Below are positions 9,592 to 55,917 of a stretch of DNA of 64,000 nucleotides, piece after piece. A program made the position numbers and the translations under genes. This DNA is from an uncultured Thermoanaerobaculia bacterium (GTDB lineage Bacteria; Acidobacteriota; Thermoanaerobaculia; Multivoradales; J023). Location of the stretch: positions 12,648-76,647 of the forward strand of contig CAZMEL010000002.1 of assembly GCA_964565225.1 (NCBI GenBank), read 5' to 3'. The notes under the pieces were generated by a model. It made no database searches. It worked only from the letters and a program-made list of their open reading frames with translations, and was not told the origin of the DNA. Each line of letters begins with the position of its first letter. Position 1 is the stretch's first letter.

Positions 9592-9643
9592 CCGGTTCGG
9601 GCCCCGAGGTACGTTCCCCGTAGACGCTCACGAAGGGAAGCCC

Positions 9644-10933
9644 ATGCTCGATTTGCGGATCCATCGCTCTACCCTCCTTCTTCTTCTCCTCGGCACCTGC
9701 CTGTGCCTCGCGCTCCCGGCCAGCGGACGAGCAGCGAGCTCGAACGAAGACCTGGCCCAGACCCTCGACGAGTACCTGCGGTCCCGGGTCTCCCATGGCT
9801 TCAGCGGTGCGGTGCTGGTGGCCCACGAGGGTGAGATCGTGCTGCGCCGCGGCTACGGGACGGCGGATCCGGAGAGTGGAGCCCCCATCACCGCGGAGAC
9901 GGTCTTCGACATCGGCTCGATCACCAAACCATTCACCGCCGCGGCGATTCTCGCGCTCGAGATGGACGGCAAGCTCTCGACCGTCGACGATCTCTACCGC
10001 TGGCACCTTGCCCTCGAGTCCGACGCCATTCTCTCGCGAGAGGCGAAGAGCAAGCTCTTTGCTCCCCACGTTCCCTGGGCGGGGCGCAGAGATGTCTTCT
10101 ACGGCTTCGGCTGGGAGGTCGCCAAGACCCCGAGGGGCACTCGGGTTCTCCGCCACAGCGGCGGGAGCGTCGAAGGGGTCAACGGCGTGGTGCAGAGGTT
10201 TGTCGACGAAGACCTGGTGGTGATCGGCCGGCCCGCCATCTTCTCGCTGCCCGCGGCCCTGGAGCGCAGAGCTCTCGGCCCCTTGCGTGTCCTCTTCGTG
10301 GGCAACAGCCAGACGTCGTGGAACGATGTACCGGCCCTCGTCGAGAGCCTGGCGGCCGCGTCGAGTGGCCTGGAGATCGACGCGACGGCATCGACTCGCG
10401 GGGGCGAGACTTTGATGGGCCACTCCGACCGCACCGACGACGACGCTCCACTCGCGATGATGGCCAAGGGCGGCTGGGACTTCGTGGTCCTCCAGGAGCA
10501 CGGCGGTCACCTCGCCGCGGGCGGCGGCTCGACCTTCACCGCCGCCTCCCGCCTCGTACGGGCCGCCAGAGAGGCGGGCGCCCGACCGATTCTCTACTCC
10601 ACCTGGGCGAGGAGGTCGAAGCCGGAGACCCAGGCTCGGATCACCGAGACCAACCGACAGCTCGGGGAGCGTCTGCAGGTGGCGGTCGCCCCCGCGGGCG
10701 AGGCGTTCCGGCGCCTGCGGGCCACAAATCCCGGCATCGAGCTCTATCGCGACGACGAGATCCACGGGAATTTCGCCGGTGGTTACCTGGCGGCCTGTGT
10801 GCTGTTTTCTACTCTCTTCGGCCAGAGCGCCGAAGGCCTTCCCACCGACTCTGCGAGCCGCGACGTCCTTGCGCCGGAGATCGTACAGATTCTGCGCTCC
10901 GAAGCCTGGGCCGCCGTTTCGACTTTTCGTTGA
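9644..10933 (+). CDS. secreted two-domain hydrolase: degenerate beta-lactamase/PBP-like N-domain fused to SGNH/GDSL-type esterase
   Basis: Signal peptide (LLLLLLGTCLCLALPASG). SxxK motif SITKPF and HSGGS (KTG-like), but the middle of the beta-lactamase fold is missing. C-terminal half has VLFVGNSQT (SGNH block I) and DDEIHGN (DxxH catalytic block). Confidence 0.6.
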   Translation: MLDLRIHRSTLLLLLLGTCLCLALPASGRAASSNEDLAQTLDEYLRSRVSHGFSGAVLVAHEGEIVLRRGYGTADPESGAPITAETVFDIGSITKPFTAAAILALEMDGKLSTVDDLYRWHLALESDAILSREAKSKLFAPHVPWAGRRDVFYGFGWEVAKTPRGTRVLRHSGGSVEGVNGVVQRFVDEDLVVIGRPAIFSLPAALERRALGPLRVLFVGNSQTSWNDVPALVESLAAASSGLEIDATASTRGGETLMGHSDRTDDDAPLAMMAKGGWDFVVLQEHGGHLAAGGGSTFTAASRLVRAAREAGARPILYSTWARRSKPETQARITETNRQLGERLQVAVAPAGEAFRRLRATNPGIELYRDDEIHGNFAGGYLAACVLFSTLFGQSAEGLPTDSASRDVLAPEIVQILRSEAWAAVSTFR

Positions 10934-12003: not shown

Positions 12004-13305
12004 ATGACCTCGACCAACGCGACCCACGATCCTCAGCTCCGCAGCTTCGTCGAGTCCGCCAACCAACCGGGCAACGACTTCCCGATCCAGAACCTGCCCT
12101 TCGGGGTCTTTCGCCAGGGAGACGACGACCGGGTCGGTGTCGCCATCGGCGACCAGATCGTCGACGTGTACCGGCTCAAGGAGCTCGGCCTGCTCACCGC
12201 TGAGGCCGAAGAAGCCGCCAGGGCCTGCGCCGGCCCCACCCTGAATCCCCTCATGGGTATGGGGCCCGAGGCGTGGAGCGCTCTGCGGGCGGCTCTCTCT
12301 TCTCTTCTCCGCGCAGACAGCCCGGAGCGTGAAACGGTGAGCCGGGCCCTGGTGCCCATGGACTCGGTGGAGCTCCAGGTGCCCGCCGACATCGGCGACT
12401 ACACCGACTTCTACTGCTCGATCCATCACGCGACCAATGTCGGCAGCATGTTCCGGCCCGACAACCCGCTGATGCCCAACTACAAACACCTGCCGGTGGG
12501 GTACCACGGCCGCAGCTCTTCGATCGTCGCCAGCGGCGCTTCCGTGGTGCGTCCACACGGCCAGACCCTGGCCGACGGTGCCGATGCTCCGACCTTCGGC
12601 CCGTCGCGCCTGCTCGACTACGAGCTGGAGGTCGGGTTCTACGTCGGCCCCGGCAACGCCATGGGCCGGTCGATCCCGCTCGAGGACGCCGAGTCCCAGC
12701 TCTTCGGCTTCTGCCTGGTGAACGACTGGTCGGCGCGGGACATCCAGAAGTGGGAGTACCAGCCCCTCGGACCCTTCCTGGCCAAGAGCTTCGCCACCAC
12801 GGTGTCTCCCTGGGTGATCACCAACGAGGCCCTGGCTCCGTTCCGGGTGCCGGCCTTCGAGCGGGCGGCGGACGATCCGAGCCCACTGCCCCACCTCGAT
12901 TCCGAGGGCAATCGCCAGCACGGCGGGATCGATATCGATCTCGAGGTCTACCTGAGCACCGAGACCATGCGCAGCCAGGGGGTCGCACCGCACCGCCTGA
13001 GCCGGGGAAACTTTCGCCACATGTACTGGACCGCGGCCCAGATGCTCACCCACCACGCCGCGGCGGGCTGCAACCTGCGGCCCGGCGACCTGATGGCCAG
13101 CGGCACGGTGTCCGGCCCGGAGAAGGACTCCCGCGGCTGCCTGCTCGAGCTGACCTGGCGAGGGAGCGAGCCCATCACCCTCCCCACCGACGAGGTGCGA
13201 CGATTCCTGCAGGACGGCGACGAGGTGATCCTGCGCGGCTCCTGCCAGCGCGAGGGTGCGGCTCGGATCGGTTTCGGCGAGTGCCGAGGGATCGTCGGAG
13301 GCTGA
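12004..13305 (+). CDS. fahA: fumarylacetoacetase (fumarylacetoacetate hydrolase)
   Basis: 433 aa. N-terminal FAH domain (NLPFGVF), catalytic core DYELEVGFYVGPGN, FGFCLVNDWSARDIQKWEYQPLGPF. Confidence 0.85.
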   Translation: MTSTNATHDPQLRSFVESANQPGNDFPIQNLPFGVFRQGDDDRVGVAIGDQIVDVYRLKELGLLTAEAEEAARACAGPTLNPLMGMGPEAWSALRAALSSLLRADSPERETVSRALVPMDSVELQVPADIGDYTDFYCSIHHATNVGSMFRPDNPLMPNYKHLPVGYHGRSSSIVASGASVVRPHGQTLADGADAPTFGPSRLLDYELEVGFYVGPGNAMGRSIPLEDAESQLFGFCLVNDWSARDIQKWEYQPLGPFLAKSFATTVSPWVITNEALAPFRVPAFERAADDPSPLPHLDSEGNRQHGGIDIDLEVYLSTETMRSQGVAPHRLSRGNFRHMYWTAAQMLTHHAAAGCNLRPGDLMASGTVSGPEKDSRGCLLELTWRGSEPITLPTDEVRRFLQDGDEVILRGSCQREGAARIGFGECRGIVGG

Positions 13306-13311
13306 GCGATC

Positions 13312-15288
<1,977 letters not shown>

Positions 15289-15452
15289 CCTATTCTCGCC
15301 GAAGCCACTCGACCGCCTCGCAGGCGCGGGCTCTCCCGAATCCAGAGTCCTTGATGATCGTGATATACTACGAACGGTTGTGTGTCGCCTGGGCGGAAGG
15401 TGGTCACAGAAACCCCTTGAGAAGTACCTGCAGCCTTCGTCGAGCTTTCCTC

Positions 15453-16835
15453 ATGGCGCTTTTTTTCCCATCGATTTCCGATCCTTCGCTTCGCGGCTGG
15501 CTCCGCGTCTGGCTGTTGAGGGCCCTCTGCCTGGCTCCGGCGATGCAAGGCTTGGCCCAGGAGCCGTCTGCGGCCGAACGGCTGGCGAATGTTCGTCAGG
15601 TGAAAATGCCGCGGGTCGATCCCACGGAGATCCGGCGAGCGGACGAAGCGCGGGTGAGCCGAGGTTCGGTGCCCCACTTTGCCGTGGCTCTGCCGGTGAA
15701 GATCTCGCCCTGGTCCCACGGCGGTTGGTTCCCCACGGACCCCGTAACGATCCGCTGGCGCCTGCGCCTGTCATCGGAGGGCGCCCGCTCACTGAGCCTC
15801 GCGTTCGGCCTCTACCGGATGCCGGAAGGGGGCCGGCTCACCGTCTCTTCCGCGGATGGAACGTCGGTCATCGGCCCGTTCACGGAAGAGGACAACGAAA
15901 CACACCGGCAGCTCTGGACACCCCCTCTCCTGAGTGACGACCTCCTGCTCGAGCTCGTCCTTCCCTTCGACCGTATCGACGACCTGGAGCTCGAGCTCAC
16001 CAAGGTGCATCACGGCTATGCAGGGTTCGGTGAGCCCGAGCCCAAGGCCGGCCACTGCCACCTCGATGTCGCCTGCTCGGAAGCCACTCCGTGGGACGAC
16101 CAGGTGCGATCCGTGGGCCTGATCTCGATCGAAGGGGTCCGTTTCTGCACCGGATTCCTGGTCAACAACACCGCCCTCGACGGCCGGCCGTTCTTTCTGA
16201 CCGCCAATCACTGCGGGATCCGGCCGACCAACGCCGCCTCGGTGGTGGTGATCTGGAATCACCAAGACCCAGGCTGCCGCAACGGCTCGGAAGAGCCTTC
16301 TTCGGTACGGCCAGGGTTGCAGTTCCAGACCGGCGCGATCTTCCGGGCCGCCTTTCCGCCTACCGATACTGTGCTTCTCGAGCTCGACGATCGCCCGGAT
16401 CCGGCGTTCGACGTCTTCTTCGCCGGCTGGGATCGCTCGGAAGAGGCGCCCCAACAGTCGGTGGTGATCCACCATCCCAACACCGACACCAAACGCATCA
16501 GCTTCGACTTCGACCCCGGTCTGCCGACCGCCCACCTCGGCCAGCGGTACCTGCCGGGTGGTACGCATCTGCGGGTCTCGGCCTGGAATCTCGGCTCTAC
16601 GGAGGGGGGATCCTCCGGCGCTCCTCTCTTCAATCGCGACCGGCGGGTCGTCGGCCAGCTGCACGGTGGTTATGCCGCCTGCGGCAACCGCGAGGCCGAC
16701 TGGTTCGGGCGGCTGGCCAACGCCTGGCACGGGTGGGGACGTTCGACCTCCAGCCTGCGCTCCTGGTTGGATCCGATCGGCAGCGAAACCCTCACTCTCG
16801 ACGGCCTCGACGCCGCCTCCATCGAGCCTCGCTAG
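15453..16835 (+). CDS. secreted trypsin-fold serine endopeptidase (S1 family, lysyl/glutamyl-endopeptidase-like) with N-terminal pro-region
   Basis: ATG at 15453 in the frame of ORF 14289..16835. Signal peptide. Catalytic His motif LTANHC, Asp in TVLLELDD, Ser motif GGSSGAPLF. Confidence 0.7.
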   Translation: MALFFPSISDPSLRGWLRVWLLRALCLAPAMQGLAQEPSAAERLANVRQVKMPRVDPTEIRRADEARVSRGSVPHFAVALPVKISPWSHGGWFPTDPVTIRWRLRLSSEGARSLSLAFGLYRMPEGGRLTVSSADGTSVIGPFTEEDNETHRQLWTPPLLSDDLLLELVLPFDRIDDLELELTKVHHGYAGFGEPEPKAGHCHLDVACSEATPWDDQVRSVGLISIEGVRFCTGFLVNNTALDGRPFFLTANHCGIRPTNAASVVVIWNHQDPGCRNGSEEPSSVRPGLQFQTGAIFRAAFPPTDTVLLELDDRPDPAFDVFFAGWDRSEEAPQQSVVIHHPNTDTKRISFDFDPGLPTAHLGQRYLPGGTHLRVSAWNLGSTEGGSSGAPLFNRDRRVVGQLHGGYAACGNREADWFGRLANAWHGWGRSTSSLRSWLDPIGSETLTLDGLDAASIEPR

Positions 16836-16889: not shown

Positions 16890-17453
16890 TTGCTGCGATT
16901 CATCGTCCTCGCACTCCCTCTGCTGATCCTGCTGCTGGCGCTCTTCGGTTTCACCGTGGAGATTCTGGATCTCGAGCCGCGGAATGGCTCGGTGGTCAAG
17001 CTGGCGGTTCTCGAGCCGCCCCTGGTGCCGGAGCCCCTGGTGCTCGGAGCCTGGCTGGTGGAAGCCTGCGGCCTGGTGGCGCTCTTCCTGATGACCCAGG
17101 GTCGCTGTGGGCGATGGTGGCTCGATGGCCTGGTGGCTGGCTGGCTGGCCTGGATCTTCCGCGGCCCGCTGCTCGTGATCACCATCGTGGTCGCGGTTCG
17201 CCAGCCCCAGGAGCCCTGGTGGACCCTCGCGTTCGGCTGGTGGGTGCTCTACTCCGCCTGTGGCCTGACGCTCGCCTGGCTGGCCCGGCGCACCGAGCTC
17301 GATGCCGAGCTGGAAGCCGAGAGGGCCGAAGAGGCCGAATGGACCGAGGTCGTGGAGGAGGAAGAGAAGCCGGAAGAGCCGGAAGCCGAATCGATTTCGG
17401 AAACGGAAGAAGACACGACACCCGAACCGAAGCCAACTCCCGGAGAAACCTGA
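16890..17453 (+). CDS. hypothetical integral membrane protein with acidic C-terminal tail
   Basis: TTG start. 4 predicted TM helices, Trp-rich segments, C-terminal EEAEWTEVVEEEEKPEEPEAESISETEEDTTPEP. Fills the gap between protease and PKS. Confidence 0.4.
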   Translation: MLRFIVLALPLLILLLALFGFTVEILDLEPRNGSVVKLAVLEPPLVPEPLVLGAWLVEACGLVALFLMTQGRCGRWWLDGLVAGWLAWIFRGPLLVITIVVAVRQPQEPWWTLAFGWWVLYSACGLTLAWLARRTELDAELEAERAEEAEWTEVVEEEEKPEEPEAESISETEEDTTPEPKPTPGET

Positions 17454-17455
17454 TC

Positions 17456-18502
17456 TTGCGCATTGCAGCCGTCGGCAAGGCCTTGCCGCCCCACTACTAC
17501 GGCCAGGAAGAATTGCTCGCGGCATTCAAGGATCAATGGAACCAGCAACACTACAACCCCGAGCGACTCGATCGGCTGCACAAGAATGTGCTGGTCGGTG
17601 GCCGCCATTTGGCTCTGCCGATCGAGGCCTATGACGAGCTCGAGACCTGGGGCCAGGCCAACGACCAGTGGATCCGGGTTGCCCAGGAGGTAGGGGCCGA
17701 GGCGATTCGCGACGCCGTGGAGCGCTCCGGGCTCGGCTGGGATCAGATCGGCGCGCTGTTGACGGTCACCGTCACCGGAGTGGCGACTCCTTCCCTCGAC
17801 GCACGCCTGATGAACCGCCTGGAGCTTCCGCGAGACCTTCGCCGGGTGCCGATCTTCGGCCTCGGCTGTGTCGCCGGAGCGGCCGGCATCGCCCGGGCGG
17901 CCGACCTCGTGGCCGGGACCCCGGAGAAGGCCGCGATTCTGCTCTCGGTCGAGCTCTGTTCCCTGACTCTCCAGAGGCGCGACCTCTCGATTCCGAATCT
18001 CATCGCCACCGGTCTCTTCGGCGACGGTGCCGCGGCGGCGGTGGTGACAGGAGCCGAGATCGATGCCGGCGGCCCCGAGGTGGTCGCGACCCGCTCGGTC
18101 TTTTATCCCGAGACCGAAGAGGTGATGGGCTGGCGGATCTCCGAAGAGGGTTTTCGCATCGTGCTCTCGGCCGATGTGCCGAACATGGTGAGCGACCATC
18201 TCCGCCAGGACGTGGACTCGTTTCTTGCCGAACATGGGCTGACCCGCGACGAGATCGCCGCCTGGATCTGCCACCCTGGAGGCCCGAAGGTGCTCGCGGC
18301 GATGGAAGAGTCCCTGGAGCTCCCCGCCGACGCCCTGGAGCCCACCTGGCGCAGCCTGCGAGAGGTGGGCAACCTCTCTTCGAGCTCCGTGCTGCTGGTG
18401 CTCCGTGAGATCCTCGACACCCCGCCCGGACCCGGTGAACATGGGCTGCTGCTGGCCATGGGGCCGGGGTTCTGCTCCGAGCTGGTGCTCCTGAGGTGGT
18501 GA
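17456..18502 (+). CDS. type III polyketide synthase (chalcone/stilbene synthase family; alkylresorcinol/alkylpyrone synthase-like)
   Basis: About 348 aa from a TTG near 17456. Active-site Cys in GLGCVAGAAG, His in ICHPGGPKVL, Asn in GNLSSSSVL, and CHS-like N-terminus RIAAVGKALP. Confidence 0.85.
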   Translation: MRIAAVGKALPPHYYGQEELLAAFKDQWNQQHYNPERLDRLHKNVLVGGRHLALPIEAYDELETWGQANDQWIRVAQEVGAEAIRDAVERSGLGWDQIGALLTVTVTGVATPSLDARLMNRLELPRDLRRVPIFGLGCVAGAAGIARAADLVAGTPEKAAILLSVELCSLTLQRRDLSIPNLIATGLFGDGAAAAVVTGAEIDAGGPEVVATRSVFYPETEEVMGWRISEEGFRIVLSADVPNMVSDHLRQDVDSFLAEHGLTRDEIAAWICHPGGPKVLAAMEESLELPADALEPTWRSLREVGNLSSSSVLLVLREILDTPPGPGEHGLLLAMGPGFCSELVLLRW

Positions 18503-18503
18503 A

Positions 18504-19094
18504 TTGAGCGACCTCGTTTCCGATAGCCGGTTCTGGTTTCTCGGCTTGATCGGCCTCGTGGTGCTGGAGCGCCTCGGCGAGCTGGTGATCACCCGCCGCA
18601 ACGCTCGTAGCCTCGAAGCGCGGGGCGGGTTCGAGGTGGGTGGAGAGCATTTCGGCGTCATGGCCTGTTTGCACACGGCATTCCTCGTGGCAGGTCCGCT
18701 GGAGGTATGGCTCCTCGATCGCTCCATGCTCCCCGTGATCTCCTGGCTCGCCCTCGGCCTCGTGGCCCTCACCATGGCGCTGCGCTACTGGGCGATCTTC
18801 AGCCTCGGCGATCGCTGGACGGCCAGGGTCTACGTGGTGCCCGGGGAGCCTCCCGTCTCGGGCGGGCCCTACCGCTACCTCCGCCACCCCAACTATCTCG
18901 CCGTCATCGTGGAGATCGCCGCCCTACCCCTGGTGCACGGGGCCTGGATCACCGCCTTCGTCTTCTCTCTCGCCAACGCCGCGATGCTCCGCACCCGGAT
19001 TCGTGTGGAAGAAAAAGCGCTCGCGGAACACTCGAATTACGGGAGTACCATGGGCTCGAAAGCACGTTTCGTCCCGGGAACCCACGGAGACTGA
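18504..19094 (+). CDS. isoprenylcysteine carboxyl methyltransferase (ICMT)-family membrane methyltransferase (SrsB/ArsD? -like O-methyltransferase)
   Basis: TTG start 2 nt after the PKS stop. Multi-TM. Conserved C-terminal RHPNY..E motif (YRYLRHPNYLAVIVE). Confidence 0.7.
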   Translation: MSDLVSDSRFWFLGLIGLVVLERLGELVITRRNARSLEARGGFEVGGEHFGVMACLHTAFLVAGPLEVWLLDRSMLPVISWLALGLVALTMALRYWAIFSLGDRWTARVYVVPGEPPVSGGPYRYLRHPNYLAVIVEIAALPLVHGAWITAFVFSLANAAMLRTRIRVEEKALAEHSNYGSTMGSKARFVPGTHGD

Positions 19095-19097
19095 GCC

Positions 19098-19349
19098 TTG
19101 AGCAGACAGGCGGCCACGGACATCGAGTCGGCCATTGCCGAGCTCGCTCGGAACAAGCTGAGCCTCGAACGAGACCTTCACCCGAGCCTGCGGCTGGCGG
19201 AGGATCTCGGCCTCGACTCCATCCAGCTCCTGACCCTCGCCACCGAGGTGGAAGACCACTTCCGAGTTCGCCTCGACGAGGCCGACGAGATCTCCATCGA
19301 GACGGTGGGCGACTTGATCGCCGTGGTGGAGCAGAAGCTTGGTTCCTGA
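19098..19349 (+). CDS. acyl carrier protein (83 aa)
   Basis: LGLDSIQLLTL phosphopantetheinylation site. Acidic helical protein. Translationally coupled to the flanking genes. Confidence 0.75.
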   Translation: MSRQAATDIESAIAELARNKLSLERDLHPSLRLAEDLGLDSIQLLTLATEVEDHFRVRLDEADEISIETVGDLIAVVEQKLGS

Positions 19350-21117
19350 AACCCTGATCGATCTCCTGCGGCAGGCCCACAGGTACCACGACACGGGCCT
19401 GCGATTTCTCGACCGCCGAGAAGACGAGACCTTCCATTCCTGGGCCGAGCTCGCGGAGACGGCTTCGGAAGTCGCCGGAAGCCTGATCGCCGTCGGCATT
19501 CGTCCGGGCCAGAGAGTGGCGTTGATCTACCCCACCGAGGTGGCCTTCTTCCATGCTTTCTTCGGAATCTTGCTCGTCGGCGCCGTTCCGGTTCCTCTCT
19601 ATCCGCCGGCCAGGCTCGGCCGCCTGGAGGAATACCACCGTCGTACCGCCGCCATGGTGCAGGCTTCGGGCGCCGAGCTGATCCTCACCTCTGCCACCGT
19701 ACGCCGACTGCTCGGTCGCACCATCGAGCTCGCCGATCCGCCGCTGGGTTGCCTCACTCTCTCGGAGCTGCCGCGATCGGCCCCGGCGGAAGCCCAGCCC
19801 ACGAAGGATGATCTCGCCCTGGTGCAGTTCTCGTCGGGTACCACGGTGGACCCCAAGCCGGTGGCGCTCTCCCACCGCGCGATCCTGGCCCAGGTCGACA
19901 TGCTCAACGGCAACTGGCCCAAGACCGGACCCGTGCAGCACTCCGGGGTCAGCTGGCTGCCTCTCTACCACGACATGGGTCTGATCGGCTGTATCTTCCC
20001 CGCTCTCGAGCGACCGGGAACCCTGACCCTGATCGGCCCGGAGGTCTTCGTGACCCGGCCGGCGATCTGGCTGCGGGCCATCTCCCGTTTCCGCGCCACC
20101 ATCTCCGTGGCACCCAACTTCGCCTACGGCCTCTGTGTCGAGAAGATCGAAGATCGAGAGATCGAAGGGATCGATCTCGGCTCCTGGCTGGTCGCTCTGA
20201 ACGGCGCCGAGCCCGTGGCTCCCGCCGTGCTGCGGCAGTTCCTCCAGCGATTCGAGCCCTACGGGTTTCGCCCCGAAGCCCTGACCCCTGTCTACGGTCT
20301 CTCCGAGGCAACTCTGGCCGTCACTTTCTCCGACCTCGACCAGCTCTTCCGTTCCGAAACCTTCGATCGGACCCAGCTGGCGTCCGAGGATCGGGCGGTT
20401 GCCACGAGCGACGGCCTCGAGCTGGCCTCGGTCGGCCGACCCCTGCCAGGCGTCACTCTGCGAATCGTCGACGAGCAGGGTGTCGAGCTGGAGAACGACC
20501 GCGTGGGCCGGGTCCTGGTGCGCAGCCCGGCCCTGATGGACGGATACCTCGGCCGCACCGAAGCCACCCGTGCGACCTTTCGCGAGGGTTGGCTCGATAC
20601 CGGAGACCTCGGCTTCCTGCACGAAGGGGAGCTGTACCTCACCTCCCGGGCCAAGGATGTGGTCATTCTGCGGGGCCGGAACCACTCACCCGCCGAGATC
20701 GAGCAGGCCATCGATCGAGTGCCCGGAGCGCGCATCGGCTGTTCCGTTGCGGTGAGCCGACAGCCCGAGAACGGACCCACCGAGCAACTGCTGCTATTCG
20801 TGGAGCACCGCCGAGAGGCTCCGGAAGAGCAGGTCCGGAAGCTACCCGAAGAGTGCAGAGCCGCGGTGGTGGCTGCCACCGGCCTGCGTGCCGACGAGGT
20901 GGTGGTGCTTTCGCCCGGCACCCTACCCAGAACCTCCTCGGGCAAGCTCCGGAGACGCGAGGCGCTCACTCTCCATCTCCGCGGAAAGCTCCAGCCTCCC
21001 CGTGCCGTGACCCCTCTGCTGCTCGCCGGTGCCATGGCGAAGTCGTCCCTGACTCTCTGGCGCCACAAGGTGCGGAAGAAGCGGCGGCCGGCTCGGCGGC
21101 GAGACTCGGACCGTTGA
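19339..21117 (+). CDS. fatty acyl-AMP ligase (FAAL) family adenylating enzyme
   Basis: TTG start overlapping the ACP stop. Motifs FSSGTT, WLPLYHDMGLIG, YGLSEATLAV, TGDLGF, LRGRN and C-terminal TSSGKLRRRE. Paralogous to the FAAL at 1597. Confidence 0.8.
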   Translation: MVPETLIDLLRQAHRYHDTGLRFLDRREDETFHSWAELAETASEVAGSLIAVGIRPGQRVALIYPTEVAFFHAFFGILLVGAVPVPLYPPARLGRLEEYHRRTAAMVQASGAELILTSATVRRLLGRTIELADPPLGCLTLSELPRSAPAEAQPTKDDLALVQFSSGTTVDPKPVALSHRAILAQVDMLNGNWPKTGPVQHSGVSWLPLYHDMGLIGCIFPALERPGTLTLIGPEVFVTRPAIWLRAISRFRATISVAPNFAYGLCVEKIEDREIEGIDLGSWLVALNGAEPVAPAVLRQFLQRFEPYGFRPEALTPVYGLSEATLAVTFSDLDQLFRSETFDRTQLASEDRAVATSDGLELASVGRPLPGVTLRIVDEQGVELENDRVGRVLVRSPALMDGYLGRTEATRATFREGWLDTGDLGFLHEGELYLTSRAKDVVILRGRNHSPAEIEQAIDRVPGARIGCSVAVSRQPENGPTEQLLLFVEHRREAPEEQVRKLPEECRAAVVAATGLRADEVVVLSPGTLPRTSSGKLRRREALTLHLRGKLQPPRAVTPLLLAGAMAKSSLTLWRHKVRKKRRPARRRDSDR

Positions 21118-22286
21118 GCTCCGCCACCGACTCGGACGTCCTGATCATCGGTGGCGGCCCCGCGGGCCTGGCCACGGCGATCGCTGCTCGAGGGCACGGC
21201 CTCGAGGTACGGGTCCTGGATCGGCGACGCCCACCGATCGACAAAGCCTGCGGGGAAGGCCTGATGCCCGACGGCGTGGCCGCCCTCCGCGGCCTGGGGG
21301 TCGACCTCTCGAAGGTCGGATTTCCGTTTCGCGGCATTCGCTACCTCGACGGCGATCTCGTGGCGGAAGGCTCGTTTCCCGGCGGAAACGGCCTCGGTAT
21401 TCGCCGCCTCGAGCTCCACCGGGCCCTCCTTCGGCGGGCCGAGCAGATCGGAGTCGATTTATGCTGGGAAACGGCGGTCGAGGATCTCGGCTGCCGCCCC
21501 GATGGTAGATGGGACGAGGCTCGAACGACCCGTGGTGTCTATGGCTGCCGTTGGCTGGTGGGTGCCGACGGGCTCCGTTCCCGAGTTCGGCGATGGGTGG
21601 GGCTCGAAGGGCGAGGAGAGCCCGTGGAGCACGGACGCTTCGGCGTTCGTCGACACTTCCGGGTTCGCCCCTGGAGCCCGAAGGTGGAGGTGTATTGGGC
21701 GGAGGAATGTGAAGCCTATGTCACTCCGGTCGCCGAGGACGAGGTGGGAGTGGCGATCTTGTGGAGCGGCCGCAAGGCTCGATTCGACGCCCTCCTCTCC
21801 GCCTTCCCGAGGCTCCGAGACCGCCTCGCAGAAGCACCCGCCGTTTCTCGAGATCGCGGTTCCGGGCCCTTGCGGCAACGCGCCCTGGCGCCGACCCGTC
21901 GCAACGTTGCTCTGGTGGGAGATGCCAGTGGCTATGTAGACGCCATCACCGGGGAAGGCCTGTCTCTGGCGTTTCACCAGGCCTCGGCGCTGGCCGATGC
22001 CCTGGCCCGGGCGGATCTGCGCCCCTATCGCCGCCAATGCCGCCGGATCGCCAGGCTTCCCGATGCCACCACCGAGCTCCTGCTCCGGCTCGAGCGTTTT
22101 CCGAGCCTGCGGCGCCGGCTGATCTCGATCCTGGCCCGGGATCCGGACACCTTTTCTCGGCTGCTGGCGGTCCACTCCCGGCAGGAGCCTTTTCTCGGCA
22201 CCGTGATTCCGCTCCTGCCCCGGCTCTTGCGCGGGCTCAGGCCCGGACGTGAGCCCATACCCGATCCGGCTCGTCGGGAGGGGTGA
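21114..22286 (+). CDS. FAD-dependent monooxygenase/oxidoreductase (geranylgeranyl-reductase-like; SrsC-like flavin hydroxylase)
   Basis: TTG start overlapping the FAAL stop (ATGA-type overlap). Rossmann motif DVLIIGGGPAGLATA, GADG..S.VR motif, and a later GD nucleotide-binding segment LVGDASGYVDAITGEG. Confidence 0.75.
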   Translation: MSSATDSDVLIIGGGPAGLATAIAARGHGLEVRVLDRRRPPIDKACGEGLMPDGVAALRGLGVDLSKVGFPFRGIRYLDGDLVAEGSFPGGNGLGIRRLELHRALLRRAEQIGVDLCWETAVEDLGCRPDGRWDEARTTRGVYGCRWLVGADGLRSRVRRWVGLEGRGEPVEHGRFGVRRHFRVRPWSPKVEVYWAEECEAYVTPVAEDEVGVAILWSGRKARFDALLSAFPRLRDRLAEAPAVSRDRGSGPLRQRALAPTRRNVALVGDASGYVDAITGEGLSLAFHQASALADALARADLRPYRRQCRRIARLPDATTELLLRLERFPSLRRRLISILARDPDTFSRLLAVHSRQEPFLGTVIPLLPRLLRGLRPGREPIPDPARREG

Positions 22287-23700
22287 GGAGGCTGACTCCC
22301 ACGAGCAGGGAGACGTTGGCGATCAGGCCGTAGATGCCTTCGTGCATTCCCGGAATCGGAGACAGCTCCGGTCGCACCAGGAACAGGACGTTGACCAGGA
22401 TCCCACCGATCAGACCCGCCAGAGCTCCCGCACCGGTCGCTCGGGGCCAGTAGAAGGCGGCGAACATCAGGGGGAAGATCTGGGCCACTCCGCCGTAGGC
22501 CCCCAGCAACAGCGCGACCAGGCTGATCTCCGAGAACACGGCGAAATAGAAAGCCGTGAGCGAAAGCACCAGGACCAGGGTCCGGATCCAGCTTCGCTGT
22601 TGATGGTCTTCGATCCCGGGAAAGAGCTGGCAGAGACCGTCGCGCACCCCGATCGAGGCGGCGGAGTGCAGAATGGAGTCTCCGGTCGACATGGAGGCGG
22701 CCAGGGTTCCCGCACAAACCAACCCCACCAGAATCGGCGACATCTCGACCTGGGTCAGCAGGAACGGCACGATGGTGTCGGGTTTGACACCGGGATACGC
22801 CAGGATTCCGCAAAAGCCCATCAGCAGGACCGGCACCAGGAAGACCTGGAAGGTCGGGTAGAACACCACGGTCCTGCGCAGGTCTCGGTCGCTGCGAGCG
22901 GCATAACTCTTCATGAAGAGATGTGGCCACATGGTGAAGCCGAATCCGGAGACCACCACGGCGGAGCTGAAGGCGGCCCAGCTCCAGGGCTCTCCGGAGC
23001 CGCTCAGGCCCGGAGCCCGGAGCATCTCGCCGTGGGCGGCCTCGATCTGCTCGAACATCGGACCAACGCCGCCGTAGAGCTGCCAGGGTAGGTAAAGACC
23101 CAGGAACCAGGCGACCACCATCATGAACAGCCCCTGGAAGAGGTTGGTCCAGCCGACACCCAACACCCCGCTCCAGAGCACGTAGATCGTCACGATGCCG
23201 TAGGTGATGCCCGCACCCGCGGCAAAGGACACCCGCCCCTCGGTGATGGTCGAGAGGATCAAGCCCGCCCCTTTCATCTGCAGAGTGAGATAGGGAATGA
23301 ACGCGGCCACGCTGAGAAGCGAAAGGAGGACCGAGAGGCTCCGGCTGTCGAAGCGGTGGGTCAGGAGCTCCGCCTGGGTGACGAAGCCGAGCTTCTGCCC
23401 CAGCCTCCGGGCCCGCGGCCCGAAGAAGTACAGCGGAACCATTCCCACCACGCCATAGGCGATGATGTAGAAGGCCGCGGCACCTCGGGAGTAGGCCCAT
23501 CCGGGGCCTCCAAGGAACGCGAACGAAGAGAAAACCGAGGCTCCCAACACGAAGTAGAGCACCAGGAATCCCATCGATCGGTCGGCGGCCACATACCCCG
23601 CGATGCTCTTGGACACTCGCAGGCCTGGCACCAGGCCCATCGCCAGGGTCGCCAAGAGATAACCACCACAGATCAGGAGAATGATCGTCTGCTGGTCCAT
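22237..23700 (-). CDS. sodium:solute symporter family (SSS) transporter
   Basis: 487 aa, about 13 TM, SSF-type glycine-rich helices. Preceded by a DUF3311 mini-protein, as is typical for this subfamily. Confidence 0.8.
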   Translation of the reverse strand: MDQQTIILLICGGYLLATLAMGLVPGLRVSKSIAGYVAADRSMGFLVLYFVLGASVFSSFAFLGGPGWAYSRGAAAFYIIAYGVVGMVPLYFFGPRARRLGQKLGFVTQAELLTHRFDSRSLSVLLSLLSVAAFIPYLTLQMKGAGLILSTITEGRVSFAAGAGITYGIVTIYVLWSGVLGVGWTNLFQGLFMMVVAWFLGLYLPWQLYGGVGPMFEQIEAAHGEMLRAPGLSGSGEPWSWAAFSSAVVVSGFGFTMWPHLFMKSYAARSDRDLRRTVVFYPTFQVFLVPVLLMGFCGILAYPGVKPDTIVPFLLTQVEMSPILVGLVCAGTLAASMSTGDSILHSAASIGVRDGLCQLFPGIEDHQQRSWIRTLVLVLSLTAFYFAVFSEISLVALLLGAYGGVAQIFPLMFAAFYWPRATGAGALAGLIGGILVNVLFLVRPELSPIPGMHEGIYGLIANVSLLVGVSLLTPPDEPDRVWAHVRA

Positions 23701-24885: not shown

Positions 24886-27129
24886 GTGGAAACCATGGCG
24901 ACCGCCGTGCTCGAACGGCCAGCTCGAAGGGGGGGATGGATCGCTGTTTTTTTCGGGCTCGCCGCCCTCTGCATACCCGGCCTGCTACGACTGGAGACCA
25001 ACAACTCTCCCGAGGCCTTCTTCGTCCGCGGCTCCGAGGCCGTCGATCGGTACCAGGAGTTCCAGCAGACCTTCGGCTCCGACCAGGCGTTGCGAGTCCT
25101 CGTCGAGGGTTCGGACCTCTGGACTCGAGAAGGGCTCCGACGCCTGGCCGACTTCGAAGAGAAGCTCGTCGAGGTTCCCGGCATCGCCCGGGTGGTGGGT
25201 CTTCGCCTCGCGCATGCGCAGGAGAGCTGGCCACCCGAAGACCCCGGGGCCTATCGGGAGAGCACCCTCGATAGCCTTCTCCATCGCTCTCTCGGGTTGA
25301 TCGACCGTAGTGGCTCCCAGGCGACGATTCTGGTCTTGCTGGAGAGCCGGAGTCCCCGGGCCACGGCTGAGACCCTCGGCGAGCTGGAGGCTCTCCTCCC
25401 CTCCCTCGGCCCGAGAATCGAAGCCCGGCTGGTAGGAATGCCGGTGCTCAACCGGGCTCTCGACCGATCCTCGAAAGAAATCGAGACCCGATTCTTTCCG
25501 CTCCTGCTGCTCTTCACCGCCGGGCTCCTGGCTCTGAGCCTACGAGACCTTCGCGGCCTTCTCGTTCTGCTCGCCTTTGTCGGACTCTGTGAGCTGGTGA
25601 CCCTGGCGACAATGGGAGCTCTGCGAGTAGAACTCAACCTGGTGCTGGCGGTCTTGCCTCCTCTTCTCTACGTGATCACCCTCGCCACGGGCCTGCACCT
25701 GTTGCTCTACTTCCGGCGCCGACGAGCGACCGGTGAGAAGCCCGTGCGAGCCTGCCTCGAGACCTACCGGAACAAGGGCTGGTCGGTGCTCTGGACCGGA
25801 ATCTCGACCCTGGTGGGTTTCCTCTCCCTGGGCGTGAGCCCGGTCGAGCCGGTCCGCGTGCTCGGCTTGTGGACCGCGTTCGGCCTGCTGGTGATGCTGG
25901 TGATCGCCTTCACGGCTCTACCGTTGCTGCTGGTGCATTGGGCCGGGCCGGCGCCACCGAGATCCCGTCGAGATCCGGGTGCCGAGAGCTCCGAGCTCGG
26001 CTACCGCTGGGGTCGCTGGGCCTGCCGCCATCGCAGTGGGGTGCTTCTTGGCGCCGTGTTCCTCGCGGGCCTGGCGCTCGCGGGCCTTCCGCGGCTCCAG
26101 GTCGAGAGCAATGCTCTGCGCTACCTGCCCGAGGACCACCGGGTACGGCAGGACATCGAGGCCCTGCAGGCGGCTGGCATCGGCGCCGCTTCGATCGAGG
26201 TCGTTCTCGAGAGCTCGGAGGGAGAGATGGCCCCAGGGGACCCCGGCCGCCTCGCCGATCTGGGGAAACGGCTCACCGCGGCGGATCCGCGGATCCTGGG
26301 GGTCTTCAGCCTGGGGACCATCGTCCGCGGCCTGGCGCCGGGCCTCGAGCTGGTTCCTTTTCTCGCCCCCGCGGCGCGCGACGCCATGGTGGTGCAGTCT
26401 CTGCGCCAGAGCTCGGAGGGCCGCGAGCTGTACTCGGCTCTGGTCTCTCCGGACGGAATCTCCACCCGCGTTTCGGTCTTCGTGCCGATCGTCGGGCAAG
26501 AGGAGCTCGCCGAGCTGCAGAGAGTCGTCCTCGAGGAGGCCAGTCGCTCTTTTCCCGACCGGCAGATTGCGATCACGGGGCAGTTGCCGCTCCTGCTGGA
26601 AGCGCAGGGGTACCTGATTCGCACGCTGGGTCTCTCCCTCGGGCTGACCCTTCTCGCGGTCACCTTGATCCTGCGTGGGCTCCTGCCCGGTTTCCGGCTG
26701 ACGGCGCTCTCCTTGCTTCCGAACCTCTGGCCGGTGTTCGGGGTGTTGGGGGTCATGGGCTGGGTGGGCATTCCCCTCGACATCGCCACGGTGATGGTGG
26801 CTTCCATCGCCCTGGGCCTGGCGGTCGACGACACCCTGCACACTCTCGGGCACTTCCGGCGCCTGGGAGCCCGCCGCGGAGCCAAGGAGGGAATGGCCCG
26901 CACGCTGGAGATCACGGCGCCGGCCTATGTGTTGACCGGAGTCGTCCTGGTGGCGGGATTCGGGGTTTGCGGCTTCTCGGATTTTGCTCCGACCGCTCGC
27001 TTCGGCCTGCTCACCGCCCTCGCGGTGGGTCTCGCCGTGGTAGGAGATCTGCTCCTGTTACCGGCGCTCCTCAGCTTCACTCCTCGCTCGACCCTGGCGC
27101 GTTGGCGCCTGGCCCAGCGAGCGCGTTGA
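24886..27129 (+). CDS. MMPL/RND-superfamily lipid exporter (HpnN-like)
   Basis: 747 aa. Two blocks of about 6 TM helices each, separated by periplasmic domains. MMPL/SSD-like topology. Confidence 0.7.
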   Translation: METMATAVLERPARRGGWIAVFFGLAALCIPGLLRLETNNSPEAFFVRGSEAVDRYQEFQQTFGSDQALRVLVEGSDLWTREGLRRLADFEEKLVEVPGIARVVGLRLAHAQESWPPEDPGAYRESTLDSLLHRSLGLIDRSGSQATILVLLESRSPRATAETLGELEALLPSLGPRIEARLVGMPVLNRALDRSSKEIETRFFPLLLLFTAGLLALSLRDLRGLLVLLAFVGLCELVTLATMGALRVELNLVLAVLPPLLYVITLATGLHLLLYFRRRRATGEKPVRACLETYRNKGWSVLWTGISTLVGFLSLGVSPVEPVRVLGLWTAFGLLVMLVIAFTALPLLLVHWAGPAPPRSRRDPGAESSELGYRWGRWACRHRSGVLLGAVFLAGLALAGLPRLQVESNALRYLPEDHRVRQDIEALQAAGIGAASIEVVLESSEGEMAPGDPGRLADLGKRLTAADPRILGVFSLGTIVRGLAPGLELVPFLAPAARDAMVVQSLRQSSEGRELYSALVSPDGISTRVSVFVPIVGQEELAELQRVVLEEASRSFPDRQIAITGQLPLLLEAQGYLIRTLGLSLGLTLLAVTLILRGLLPGFRLTALSLLPNLWPVFGVLGVMGWVGIPLDIATVMVASIALGLAVDDTLHTLGHFRRLGARRGAKEGMARTLEITAPAYVLTGVVLVAGFGVCGFSDFAPTARFGLLTALAVGLAVVGDLLLLPALLSFTPRSTLARWRLAQRAR

Positions 27130-54768: not shown

Positions 54769-54861
<93 letters not shown>

Positions 54862-55030
54862 CGACTCTTGTTTCGGGAATCCTCGGAGGCTCGATGACGA
54901 AGGGTCGTTCAGTGTTCCGGTCTGCCACAGCAAACCGCGGTGAAAACCAACCCTTCGGTTCTCGAGAGAGCTTCGACGAGGACTCGGCGAACGCGAGGCA
55001 TCTGCCTACCAGCATTCGTCGAAAATTCCC

Positions 55031-55120
<90 letters not shown>

Positions 55121-55796: not shown

Positions 55797-55917
55797 GGCC
55801 CACGAAGGGTTCGGGTCCTGTGCACCGGACGATACCGAACCTCGTCAGGCCCGGAAGGGAGCAGCGATAAGGTACTCGCGCCGGGTGCTGCAGATTCACC
55901 GGAGCCCTTCGTGGGCC
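55797..55917 (+). ncRNA. ffs: signal recognition particle RNA (4.5S, ffs)
   Basis: Contiguous domain IV consensus GUCAGGCCCGGAAGGGAGCAGC with partner GGUGCUG. Terminal helix GGCCCACGAAGGG...CCCUUCGUGGGCC closes the molecule. Lies upstream of dnaX, as in many bacteria. Confidence 0.65.

Follow-up and report, generated by a model that had tools for sequence, protein, structure and literature searches.

An ftp-type type III polyketide synthase operon predicted to make phenolic lipids in an uncultured Thermoanaerobaculia bacterium

Introduction

Phenolic lipids remodel membranes; in Streptomyces they make the cells tolerant to antibiotics, and mycobacteria use them as alternative electron carriers. 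The present work concerns an operon which probably serves the synthesis of long-chain phenolic or quinone lipids, along the route of the ftp genes of Myxococcus xanthus and the srs genes of Streptomyces, in an uncultured bacterium of the Thermoanaerobaculia (Acidobacteriota). It lies on the forward strand, at positions 17456-22286 of a 64,000-nucleotide stretch of contig CAZMEL010000002.1 (assembly GCA_964565225.1); this whole stretch is called the window below. Its five genes encode a type III polyketide synthase (PKS), a methyltransferase belonging to the family of isoprenylcysteine carboxyl methyltransferase (ICMT), an acyl carrier protein (ACP), a fatty acyl-AMP ligase (FAAL) and a flavoprotein.

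The M. xanthus genes ftpABCDE (Hayashi et al. 2011, ChemBioChem 12:2166) reportedly encode a type III PKS, a methyltransferase, a stand-alone ACP, a FAAL and a hydroxylase, in that order. FtpA is described as accepting an acyl-ACP made by the FAAL FtpD (PMC5707447) and as alkylresorcylic-acid-generating (PMC6836626); a M. xanthus FAAL-ACP pair loads in vitro (PMC8460268). The Streptomyces operon srsABC consists of genes for a stilbene-synthase-like PKS, an ICMT-family methyltransferase and a monooxygenase (PMC6669644), the flavoprotein being reported as a hydroxylase (PMC6669644, PMC8086630). A paper on decarboxylative methylation by SrsB appears in the reference list of PMC5916927. According to PMC10896814, the alkylresorcinols of SrsA and FtpA are oxidised to alkylquinones by S. 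griseus and M. xanthus. A homologous three-gene operon of Mycobacterium smegmatis leads to polyketide quinones for anaerobic biofilm respiration (PMC5916927). Finally, the acidobacterium Mor1 (uncultured, subgroup 22) possesses a type III PKS cluster organised like the alkylresorcylic-acid cluster of M. xanthus, with 58%, 54%, 54% and 47% identity for the PKS, methyltransferase, AMP-dependent synthetase and monooxygenase, respectively; no product of this cluster was detected (PMC5006271).

Results

Five biosynthetic genes in one operon

Listing and translation of the open reading frames (ORFs) of the window, together with Pfam and NCBIfam scans, revealed five tightly packed genes in the order PKS-methyltransferase-ACP-FAAL-flavoprotein (Table 1). 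Their positions and strand, already proposed in a preliminary description of this DNA, are confirmed by the domain matches and by genes called independently on a metagenome scaffold of 286 kb (SUHA22-1_SAMN20336539 scaffold_37), which carries the same exact proteins with identical boundaries for all five. The five biosynthetic genes form one intact, translationally coupled operon. The methyltransferase TTG (18504) begins 1 nt after the PKS stop codon (18500-18502), the ACP TTG follows the methyltransferase stop by 3 nt, the FAAL TTG (19339) sits 11 nt within the ACP gene and the flavoprotein TTG (21114) has a 4-nt overlap with the FAAL stop (TTGA). Overlaps with the preceding gene had been proposed for three TTG starts; those at 19339 and 21114 do exist, whereas the start at 18504 is separated from the PKS stop by the 1-nt gap. 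A GGAG/GAGG-like motif, resembling a Shine-Dalgarno sequence, is found 7-11 nt 5' of each start, and because the spacings (+1, +3, -11 and -4 nt) are so tight and each is accompanied by such a motif, a single transcript is expected.

The PKS gene is itself closely preceded by another one: reading of the junction indicates that its TTG starts 2 nt past the stop of the gene at 16890-17453, and its Shine-Dalgarno-like motif, GGAGA, lies within the 3' end of that gene. The limits first given to the operon (17456-22286) therefore hold for the five biosynthetic genes but leave out a coupled sixth one; there are probably six genes in all, the gene at 16890-17453 being the first of the operon. TTG is the start codon of all six (16890, 17456, 18504, 19098, 19339 and 21114), each preceded by a Shine-Dalgarno-like motif; PKS homologues start with ATG (45 cases), TTG (14) or GTG (14). 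Translational coupling, or a low and tuned expression, may explain this succession of six weak start codons.

The promoter scan found no sigma-70 promoter, and the number of terminator-like matches (10) was not clearly above the expectation from shuffled sequences (5.8 +/- 2.9). As these scans were uninformative, the ends of the operon were placed by spacing and strand. Long minus-strand ORFs which cover the operon (e.g. 17249-18775 and 18949-20685) were taken as high-GC artefacts, the GC content around the operon being ~0.66-0.68; it is the plus-strand frames that carry the domain matches and the conserved synteny.

Table 1. Genes of the operon and associated features (positions in the window)
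Feature	Position	Strand	Length (amino acids)	Domain matches
Type III PKS	17456-18502	+	348	Pfam Chal_sti_synt_N/C, E 5e-18 and 8e-23
ICMT-family methyltransferase	18504-19094	+	196	Pfam ICMT, E 9e-29
ACP	19098-19349	+	83	Pfam PP-binding, E 2e-8
FAAL	19339-21117	+	592	Pfam AMP-binding, E 1e-60
FAD flavoprotein	21114-22286	+	390	Pfam FAD_binding_3, E 7e-18
Four-helix membrane protein	16890-17453	+	187	no Pfam or NCBIfam match
RND transporter, HAE3/HpnN-like (outside the operon)	24886-27129	+		Pfam MMPL (E 6e-18) and Patched

Distribution of the gene order among related loci

In a scan of species-representative genomes, at least 575 loci were found to encode a relative of the PKS. Of these, the best 80, to which all locus counts below refer, were compared with the window by tblastn of all its proteins. 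They come almost entirely from metagenome-assembled genomes (MAGs) of Acidobacteriota (Thermoanaerobaculia, Holophagales and Terriglobia), with Myxococcota in addition. The order PKS-methyltransferase-ACP-FAAL-flavoprotein recurs in about 25 of these loci, including five from Myxococcota (L036, L041, L042, L066 and L077), and chance adjacency of the five genes is most improbable on that account. Simpler layouts were also found: three loci (L011, L023 and L050) have PKS-methyltransferase-flavoprotein, and a two-gene PKS-flavoprotein layout is common in Terriglobia.

Two relatives were used as proxies for the described systems. The first is a Myxococcaceae MAG (L041), in which Pfam identifies a PKS, an ACP of 83 amino acids, an AMP-binding protein of 589 amino acids and a FAD protein, in this order; identity to the window proteins is 59% for the PKS, 51% for the methyltransferase, 51% for the FAAL and 43% for the flavoprotein. 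A transporter of the MFS family (8234-9916 of that locus) is encoded directly upstream of its PKS. All matches found with that PKS as query were unnamed metagenomic or MAG proteins. The second is a linear-plasmid operon of Streptomyces sp. NBC_00184, annotated as encoding a PKS, an isoprenylcysteine carboxyl-methyltransferase-family protein and a FAD-dependent monooxygenase, an organisation like that given for srsABC in PMC6669644. The Streptomyces srs-like operon is flanked by a divergent gene for a UbiA prenyltransferase (L085, 4007-4876) and, downstream, by two more S-adenosylmethionine (SAM) methyltransferase genes and a DoxX gene. Different lineages join different membrane partners to one core. 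In the closest genome relative (L001, 11691-15964), the cluster is split between the methyltransferase and ACP genes; the insert comprises a plus-strand gene for a lipid-binding protein (SRPBCC/Polyketide_cyc), then minus-strand genes for an ECF sigma factor, a protein with a B12-binding domain, DUF1295 and DUF1475 proteins and a fasciclin.

The type III PKS and the nature of its product

The best solved relative of the PKS is Pks11 of M. tuberculosis (4jao; E 4e-105, 355 bits, 172/345 = 50% identity); the scores of other PDB entries are 207 bits for CylI, 152 bits for the S. coelicolor enzyme 1u0m and 100 bits for Pks18. Mutation of the catalytic triad, which the preliminary description had singled out as the observation that would speak against its proposal, was looked for: Cys138, His273 and Asn306 are intact and align with the catalytic residues of Pks11, the entry of the C138S mutant (4jat) having Ser at the corresponding column. 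The Cys-His-Asn triad is kept in 79 of the 80 homologous loci. As the PKS is moreover 54.7% identical to that of the srs-type operon of Streptomyces sp. NBC_00184, it can be assigned, on the basis of these alignments, to the alkylresorcinol/alkylpyrone synthase clade (Pks10/11, SrsA and FtpA-like). Two other indications were rejected. The DpgA model scored 187.8 bits against a cut-off of 425, and a DpgA identity was discarded. The residue at position His+5 is Lys278; Lys or Arg at this position has been linked to ACP-bound starters (PMC9827899), but either residue is near-universal in the PKS clade, with or without a FAAL, and it was not retained as a marker of ACP dependence.

Membership of this clade raises the question of ring closure. 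It is unlikely, though worth considering, that the same enzymes produce O-methylated long-chain alkylpyrones, the PKS lactonising its product as do BpsA/BpsB and Pks11/Pks18: homologues are called 'alkylresorcinol/alkylpyrone synthase' by JGI, ICMT-type methyltransferases are partners of pyrone-forming PKSs too (BpsB, DquB), and sequence rules meant to tell resorcinol from pyrone synthases failed in experiments (PMC9827899). However, a flavoprotein of the SrsC type makes sense only if there is an aromatic ring to act upon, and such a gene co-occurs in 46 of the 80 loci; in addition, the characterised relatives with the same partners, namely SrsA, FtpA and PKS10 of M. smegmatis, lead to resorcinols and quinones (PMC10896814, PMC5916927). 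A resorcinol-type product is therefore preferred.

The methyltransferase

In its cofactor-binding C-terminal half, the methyltransferase can be aligned with the ICMT of Methanosarcina (4a2n), the alignment taking in the GxYxxxRHPxY and EE motifs, and it is 51% identical (84/166) to the product of the ICMT-family gene of the Streptomyces sp. NBC_00184 operon. It is accordingly classified as an integral-membrane SAM methyltransferase of the ICMT family and of the SrsB/BpsB type; we take it to be of the FtpB type as well.

The flavoprotein and its presumed reaction

With the 'FAD-dependent monooxygenase' of the srs-type operon of Streptomyces sp. NBC_00184, the flavoprotein shares 45% identity (145/321) and the CGEG and GDAAGYVDALTGEG motifs. 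Because of this identity and of the shared motifs, we assign it to the flavoprotein family of srs-type operons, whichever superfamily model scores best. Among 47 flavoprotein homologues linked to a PKS, there is little or no variation in the motifs GGGPAG, C46-G-E, ADG..S and GDA(S/A)G..D.ITGEG, and the protein accompanies the PKS clade in 46 of the 80 loci. By analogy with the srs enzyme, it is presumed to hydroxylate the methylated alkylresorcinol to a hydroquinone/quinone. Similarity to PDB entries is weak and involves class A hydroxylases (3all, 43 bits), a halogenase and a geranylgeranyl reductase (3oz2, 38 bits). Two further features of the gene and its product can be mentioned: the 3' end (22237-22286) overlaps by 50 nt that of a convergent SSF symporter gene (22237-23700, minus strand), and the last ~40 residues do not align with the Streptomyces homologue.

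A geranylgeranyl-reductase-like activity, which would reduce double bonds in the phenolic lipid's side chain, this being unsaturated or prenylated, without any hydroxylation of the ring, was considered as another role for this last gene. The best NCBIfam match is indeed the geranylgeranyl-reductase superfamily model TIGR02032 (E 1e-31), and the N-terminus resembles that of the menaquinone reductase MenJ. Among the motifs conserved in the PKS-linked homologues, CGE and GDAxGxxDxxTGEG resemble geranylgeranyl-reductase signatures, and a UbiA prenyltransferase gene adjoins the Streptomyces homologue. Several points nevertheless make this role distinctly unlikely: (i) the TIGR02032 score (110.6 bits) is below the cut-off of 158.8, (ii) among solved structures, the geranylgeranyl reductase does no better than the ring hydroxylase, (iii) the srs-type flavoprotein, to which the protein is so similar, is a reported hydroxylase (PMC6669644, PMC8086630), (iv) the monooxygenase QhpG is found among the weaker NCBIfam matches and (v) no prenyltransferase is encoded by the called genes in the neighbourhood of the operon. 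Both alkylpyrone formation and side-chain reduction are regarded as minority positions, and ring hydroxylation of a methylated alkylresorcinol is retained below.

The ACP and its ligase

The ACP carries its phosphopantetheine-attachment serine, Ser41, in the motif LGLDSIQ, and NCBIfam ACP models match as well; we infer that this stand-alone protein receives the fatty-acyl starter. Its gene adjoins, with the 11-nt overlap mentioned above, the ligase gene. At the head of the NCBIfam models for the ligase stand PRK09192 ('fatty acyl-AMP ligase', 416 bits), PRK05850 and the FadD32 models. Seventeen PDB entries match at E<=1e-40, and each is a FAAL or a FAAL-type loading/adenylation domain (among them 7r7f, Legionella 3kxw, E. 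coli 3pbk, FadD23, FadD32 and FadD28), and the alignment runs through the FAAL insertion region (~residues 330-365) with single-residue gaps only. These comparisons identify the ligase as a FAAL rather than an acyl-CoA synthetase, and it would adenylate a fatty acid and load it onto the adjacent ACP.

At the C-terminus of the FAAL (20995-21117), the final SSGK(L)RR motif is followed by an extension of ~43-53 amino acids with the consensus LRLxLAGELxPPxxVTPLRLAGAMARSxLAYAR, which is conserved across phyla in the FAAL homologues of such clusters; that of the window ends in an unusually basic stretch, KVRKKRRPARRR. The extension may be an amphipathic helix for membrane binding or for docking of a partner.

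That the genes are adjacent and yet do not serve one pathway, or have decayed (the FAAL and ACP serving another lipid, for instance), is very improbable: promoter and terminator scans were unusable and inserted genes split the cluster in some relatives (L001 and L020), but the frames are intact with all catalytic motifs, the junctions range from an 11-nt overlap to a 3-nt gap, the order is kept across two phyla and the FAAL-ACP-PKS relay has a biochemical precedent (PMC5707447).

The four-helix membrane protein encoded upstream

The gene which precedes the PKS gene (16890-17453) encodes a protein with 225 homologues, all unnamed or 'hypothetical'; at the level of 50% identity, 1.84 billion proteins include no more than 61 representatives of its family. 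A core of ~135 amino acids, rich in Trp and charged residues, is strongly conserved (W55, E58, G71, R72, W76-W77-L78-D79-G80, F90, R91, P93, W110 and W111, among others, are invariant) and is followed by a variable, acidic, low-complexity C-terminal tail. An AlphaFold2 model of the protein consists of four helices (mean pLDDT confidence score 72.8). A fold search of the PDB with this model returned no match at E<=0.001, the best having an E-value of 1.1, and the fold therefore gives no clue to function.

The genomic distribution is more informative. A hidden Markov model of the core matches in 20 of the 80 loci, each match being a gene that adjoins the PKS gene, and none was found elsewhere in the 80 loci. 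The gene is upstream on the same strand in 19 cases and divergent in 1; the spacing to the PKS gene is between a 4-nt overlap and a 96-nt gap in 18 cases and 825 nt in 1. Since some of these loci (L018 and L037) have the four-helix gene and the PKS gene, without methyltransferase, FAAL and flavoprotein nearby, the linkage is to the PKS itself. Among the 80 loci, the family is confined to Acidobacteriota of the Thermoanaerobaculia/Holophagae type.

The four-helix protein is co-translated with the PKS. We suspect that it acts where the lipid is handed off at the membrane, be it through docking, sequestration or flipping: it might anchor the soluble PKS there, for example, or else take up or flip the nascent lipid on behalf of the membrane methyltransferase. 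More specifically, we put forward, as a tentative proposal with rather less than even chances, that it is a dedicated and so far unrecognised part of the pathways by which Thermoanaerobaculia/Holophagae-type Acidobacteriota make phenolic lipids with a type III PKS, defining a six-gene ftp variant. A pairing of its acidic tail with the basic C-terminal tail of the FAAL was considered and rejected: the ~43-amino acid extension of the FAAL is kept with or without the membrane protein, and net charge in the FAAL homologues is no higher with the four-helix protein present (median +2.5 versus +5).

The downstream transporter and the genomic surroundings

The preliminary description had placed an MMPL-family exporter at 24886-27129 and had suggested that it could be the cognate transporter of the operon. 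The Pfam MMPL domain is there; the HAE3 model TIGR00921, however, fits better (138.7 bits, cut-off 351.9) than the MmpL-family model TIGR00833 (63.9 bits, cut-off 874.7), neither curated cut-off being reached. The proposed connection did not fare well: two minus-strand genes (for the convergent SSF symporter and an ORF of 93 amino acids) and a plus-strand gene for a uracil-DNA glycosylase (UDG)-like protein separate it from the operon. In 5 of the 80 loci, a same-strand homologue of this RND transporter lies within the cluster or immediately behind it (L029 with 43% identity; L021, L022, L030 and L035 with ~31%). The transporter can thus be kept as a candidate exporter, with a weak link to the operon.

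Upstream of the six genes (12004-16835) are genes for a fumarylacetoacetase, an acetyl/acetoacetyl-CoA synthetase-like protein (13312-15288) and a trypsin-like peptidase (15453-16835). The peptidase gene, the only one of the three to be searched in the related loci, is conserved upstream of the cluster solely in the closest relative, L001. Beyond ~28-30 kb, GC content drops from ~0.67 to 0.55-0.62. The region 28000-64000 contains housekeeping genes, which include those for a Wzm/Wzt-type ABC exporter, SufB/D, a cysteine desulfurase, a PAS histidine kinase, YidC and DnaX; two tRNA-Ser genes (54771-55120, minus strand) and the gene for signal recognition particle RNA (55809-55908) are also found. 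Because housekeeping genes fill this part of the window, the cluster resides in the core chromosome, with no obvious island.

Discussion

The pathway which probably operates here can be outlined by analogy with the ftp and srs systems. The FAAL would adenylate a free long-chain fatty acid and load it on the phosphopantetheine arm of the neighbouring ACP, CoA being bypassed. The PKS would then extend the acyl-ACP starter with three malonyl-CoA and, by aldol condensation, yield an alkylresorcylic acid or an alkylresorcinol. The membrane-embedded ICMT-family enzyme would carry out an O-methylation, with decarboxylation as in the SrsB precedent. Finally, the SrsC-type flavoprotein would hydroxylate the ring to a hydroquinone, leading to an alkyl-methoxy-benzoquinone retained in the membrane. 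The likely product is, in other words, a methylated alkylresorcinol oxidised to an alkyl-methoxy-benzoquinone. How long the chain is, whether cyclisation gives a resorcinol or a pyrone, where methylation and hydroxylation take place and what the lipid does for the cell are all extrapolated from the described systems; the quinone may, for instance, be an alternative carrier of respiratory electrons, as are the polyketide quinones of mycobacterial biofilms.

A number of points weigh against this assignment. Of the ftp system, the cited papers confirm only FtpA, FtpD and the pathway, and orthology to FtpA-E and SrsA-C was assessed through proxies, the operon of a Myxococcaceae MAG and the plasmid operon of a Streptomyces sp. 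Pks11, the nearest solved PKS, was crystallised as an alkylpyrone synthase, so that lactone products are possible, and Lys at His+5 does not single out ACP-dependent enzymes. Every NCBIfam model that matches the FAAL scores below its curated cut-off, and the called genes around the operon include none for a phosphopantetheinyl transferase. The flavoprotein finds its best NCBIfam match, below cut-off, in a geranylgeranyl-reductase superfamily and carries an invariant CGE motif.

As to its significance, the locus adds an uncultured acidobacterial lineage to those with a pathway already understood in biochemical terms, and it does not overturn current understanding. Type III PKS clusters primed by FAAL and ACP are widespread in Acidobacteriota, about one-third of the best 80 of the at least 575 PKS loci carrying the full cassette. 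Because such lipids have roles in membrane remodelling, tolerance and electron transport elsewhere, they may have a bearing on how Acidobacteria persist in soil and sediment. The four-helix gene is the sole non-routine element and the one new lead of the locus.

Comparison with known systems

The cluster had been thought to be probably uncharacterised. This holds to the extent that a literature search found no experimental characterisation of such an operon in Acidobacteria; the architecture itself is known. It is not a new combination, since the class, its logic and an acidobacterial example (Mor1) have been published.

The preliminary description had also pointed to the ars genes of Azotobacter vinelandii and to cyanobacterial clusters, and these analogies turn out to be looser. 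In ars and in the cyanobacterial cyl cluster, too, a type III PKS takes an ACP-bound fatty-acyl starter, and cyl opens with a FAAL-ACP pair (CylA/B). In both, however, a fatty acid synthase (FAS) or PKS of type I stands between starter loading and the type III PKS, whereas the genes called in the 10 kb to each side of the window operon include no ketosynthase or type I FAS/PKS domain; neither is described with an ICMT methyltransferase or an SrsC-type flavoprotein, and CylI is a more distant relative of the window PKS than Pks11 (207 versus 355 bits). The hidABC-type operons of planctomycetes and picocyanobacteria likewise combine a type III alkylresorcinol synthase, a methyltransferase and a FAD oxidoreductase, but in reversed order (methyltransferase, oxidoreductase, PKS) and with no FAAL or ACP reported in that operon (PMC10896814).

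The resemblance is closer with srsABC and the M. smegmatis operon, which have a homologous PKS, ICMT methyltransferase and FAD monooxygenase and for which the same succession is expected, from alkylresorcinol to methyl ether to alkylquinone. These are three-gene operons without a dedicated FAAL and ACP, whereas in the window the ACP and FAAL genes are inserted between those for the methyltransferase and the flavoprotein. The Mor1 cluster, compared here through its published description, comes from the same phylum, and its identities to M. xanthus are near those of the window proteins to Myxococcaceae; a four-helix membrane protein is not mentioned for it in PMC5006271.

The ftp cluster of M. 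xanthus comes closest, with, reportedly, the same five functions in the same order, an order that the window shares with the Myxococcaceae locus L041. It differs in that the window derives from Acidobacteriota and in the gene before the PKS, which encodes the four-helix protein in the window and the MFS transporter in L041. The earlier proposal of an srs logic combined with a FAAL-ACP starter module, as in myxobacteria, is borne out by domain, structure-database and synteny comparisons. On the reported ftp order, the window operon is best classed as ftp-type, that is, as an srs trio with a FAAL-ACP module between B and C.

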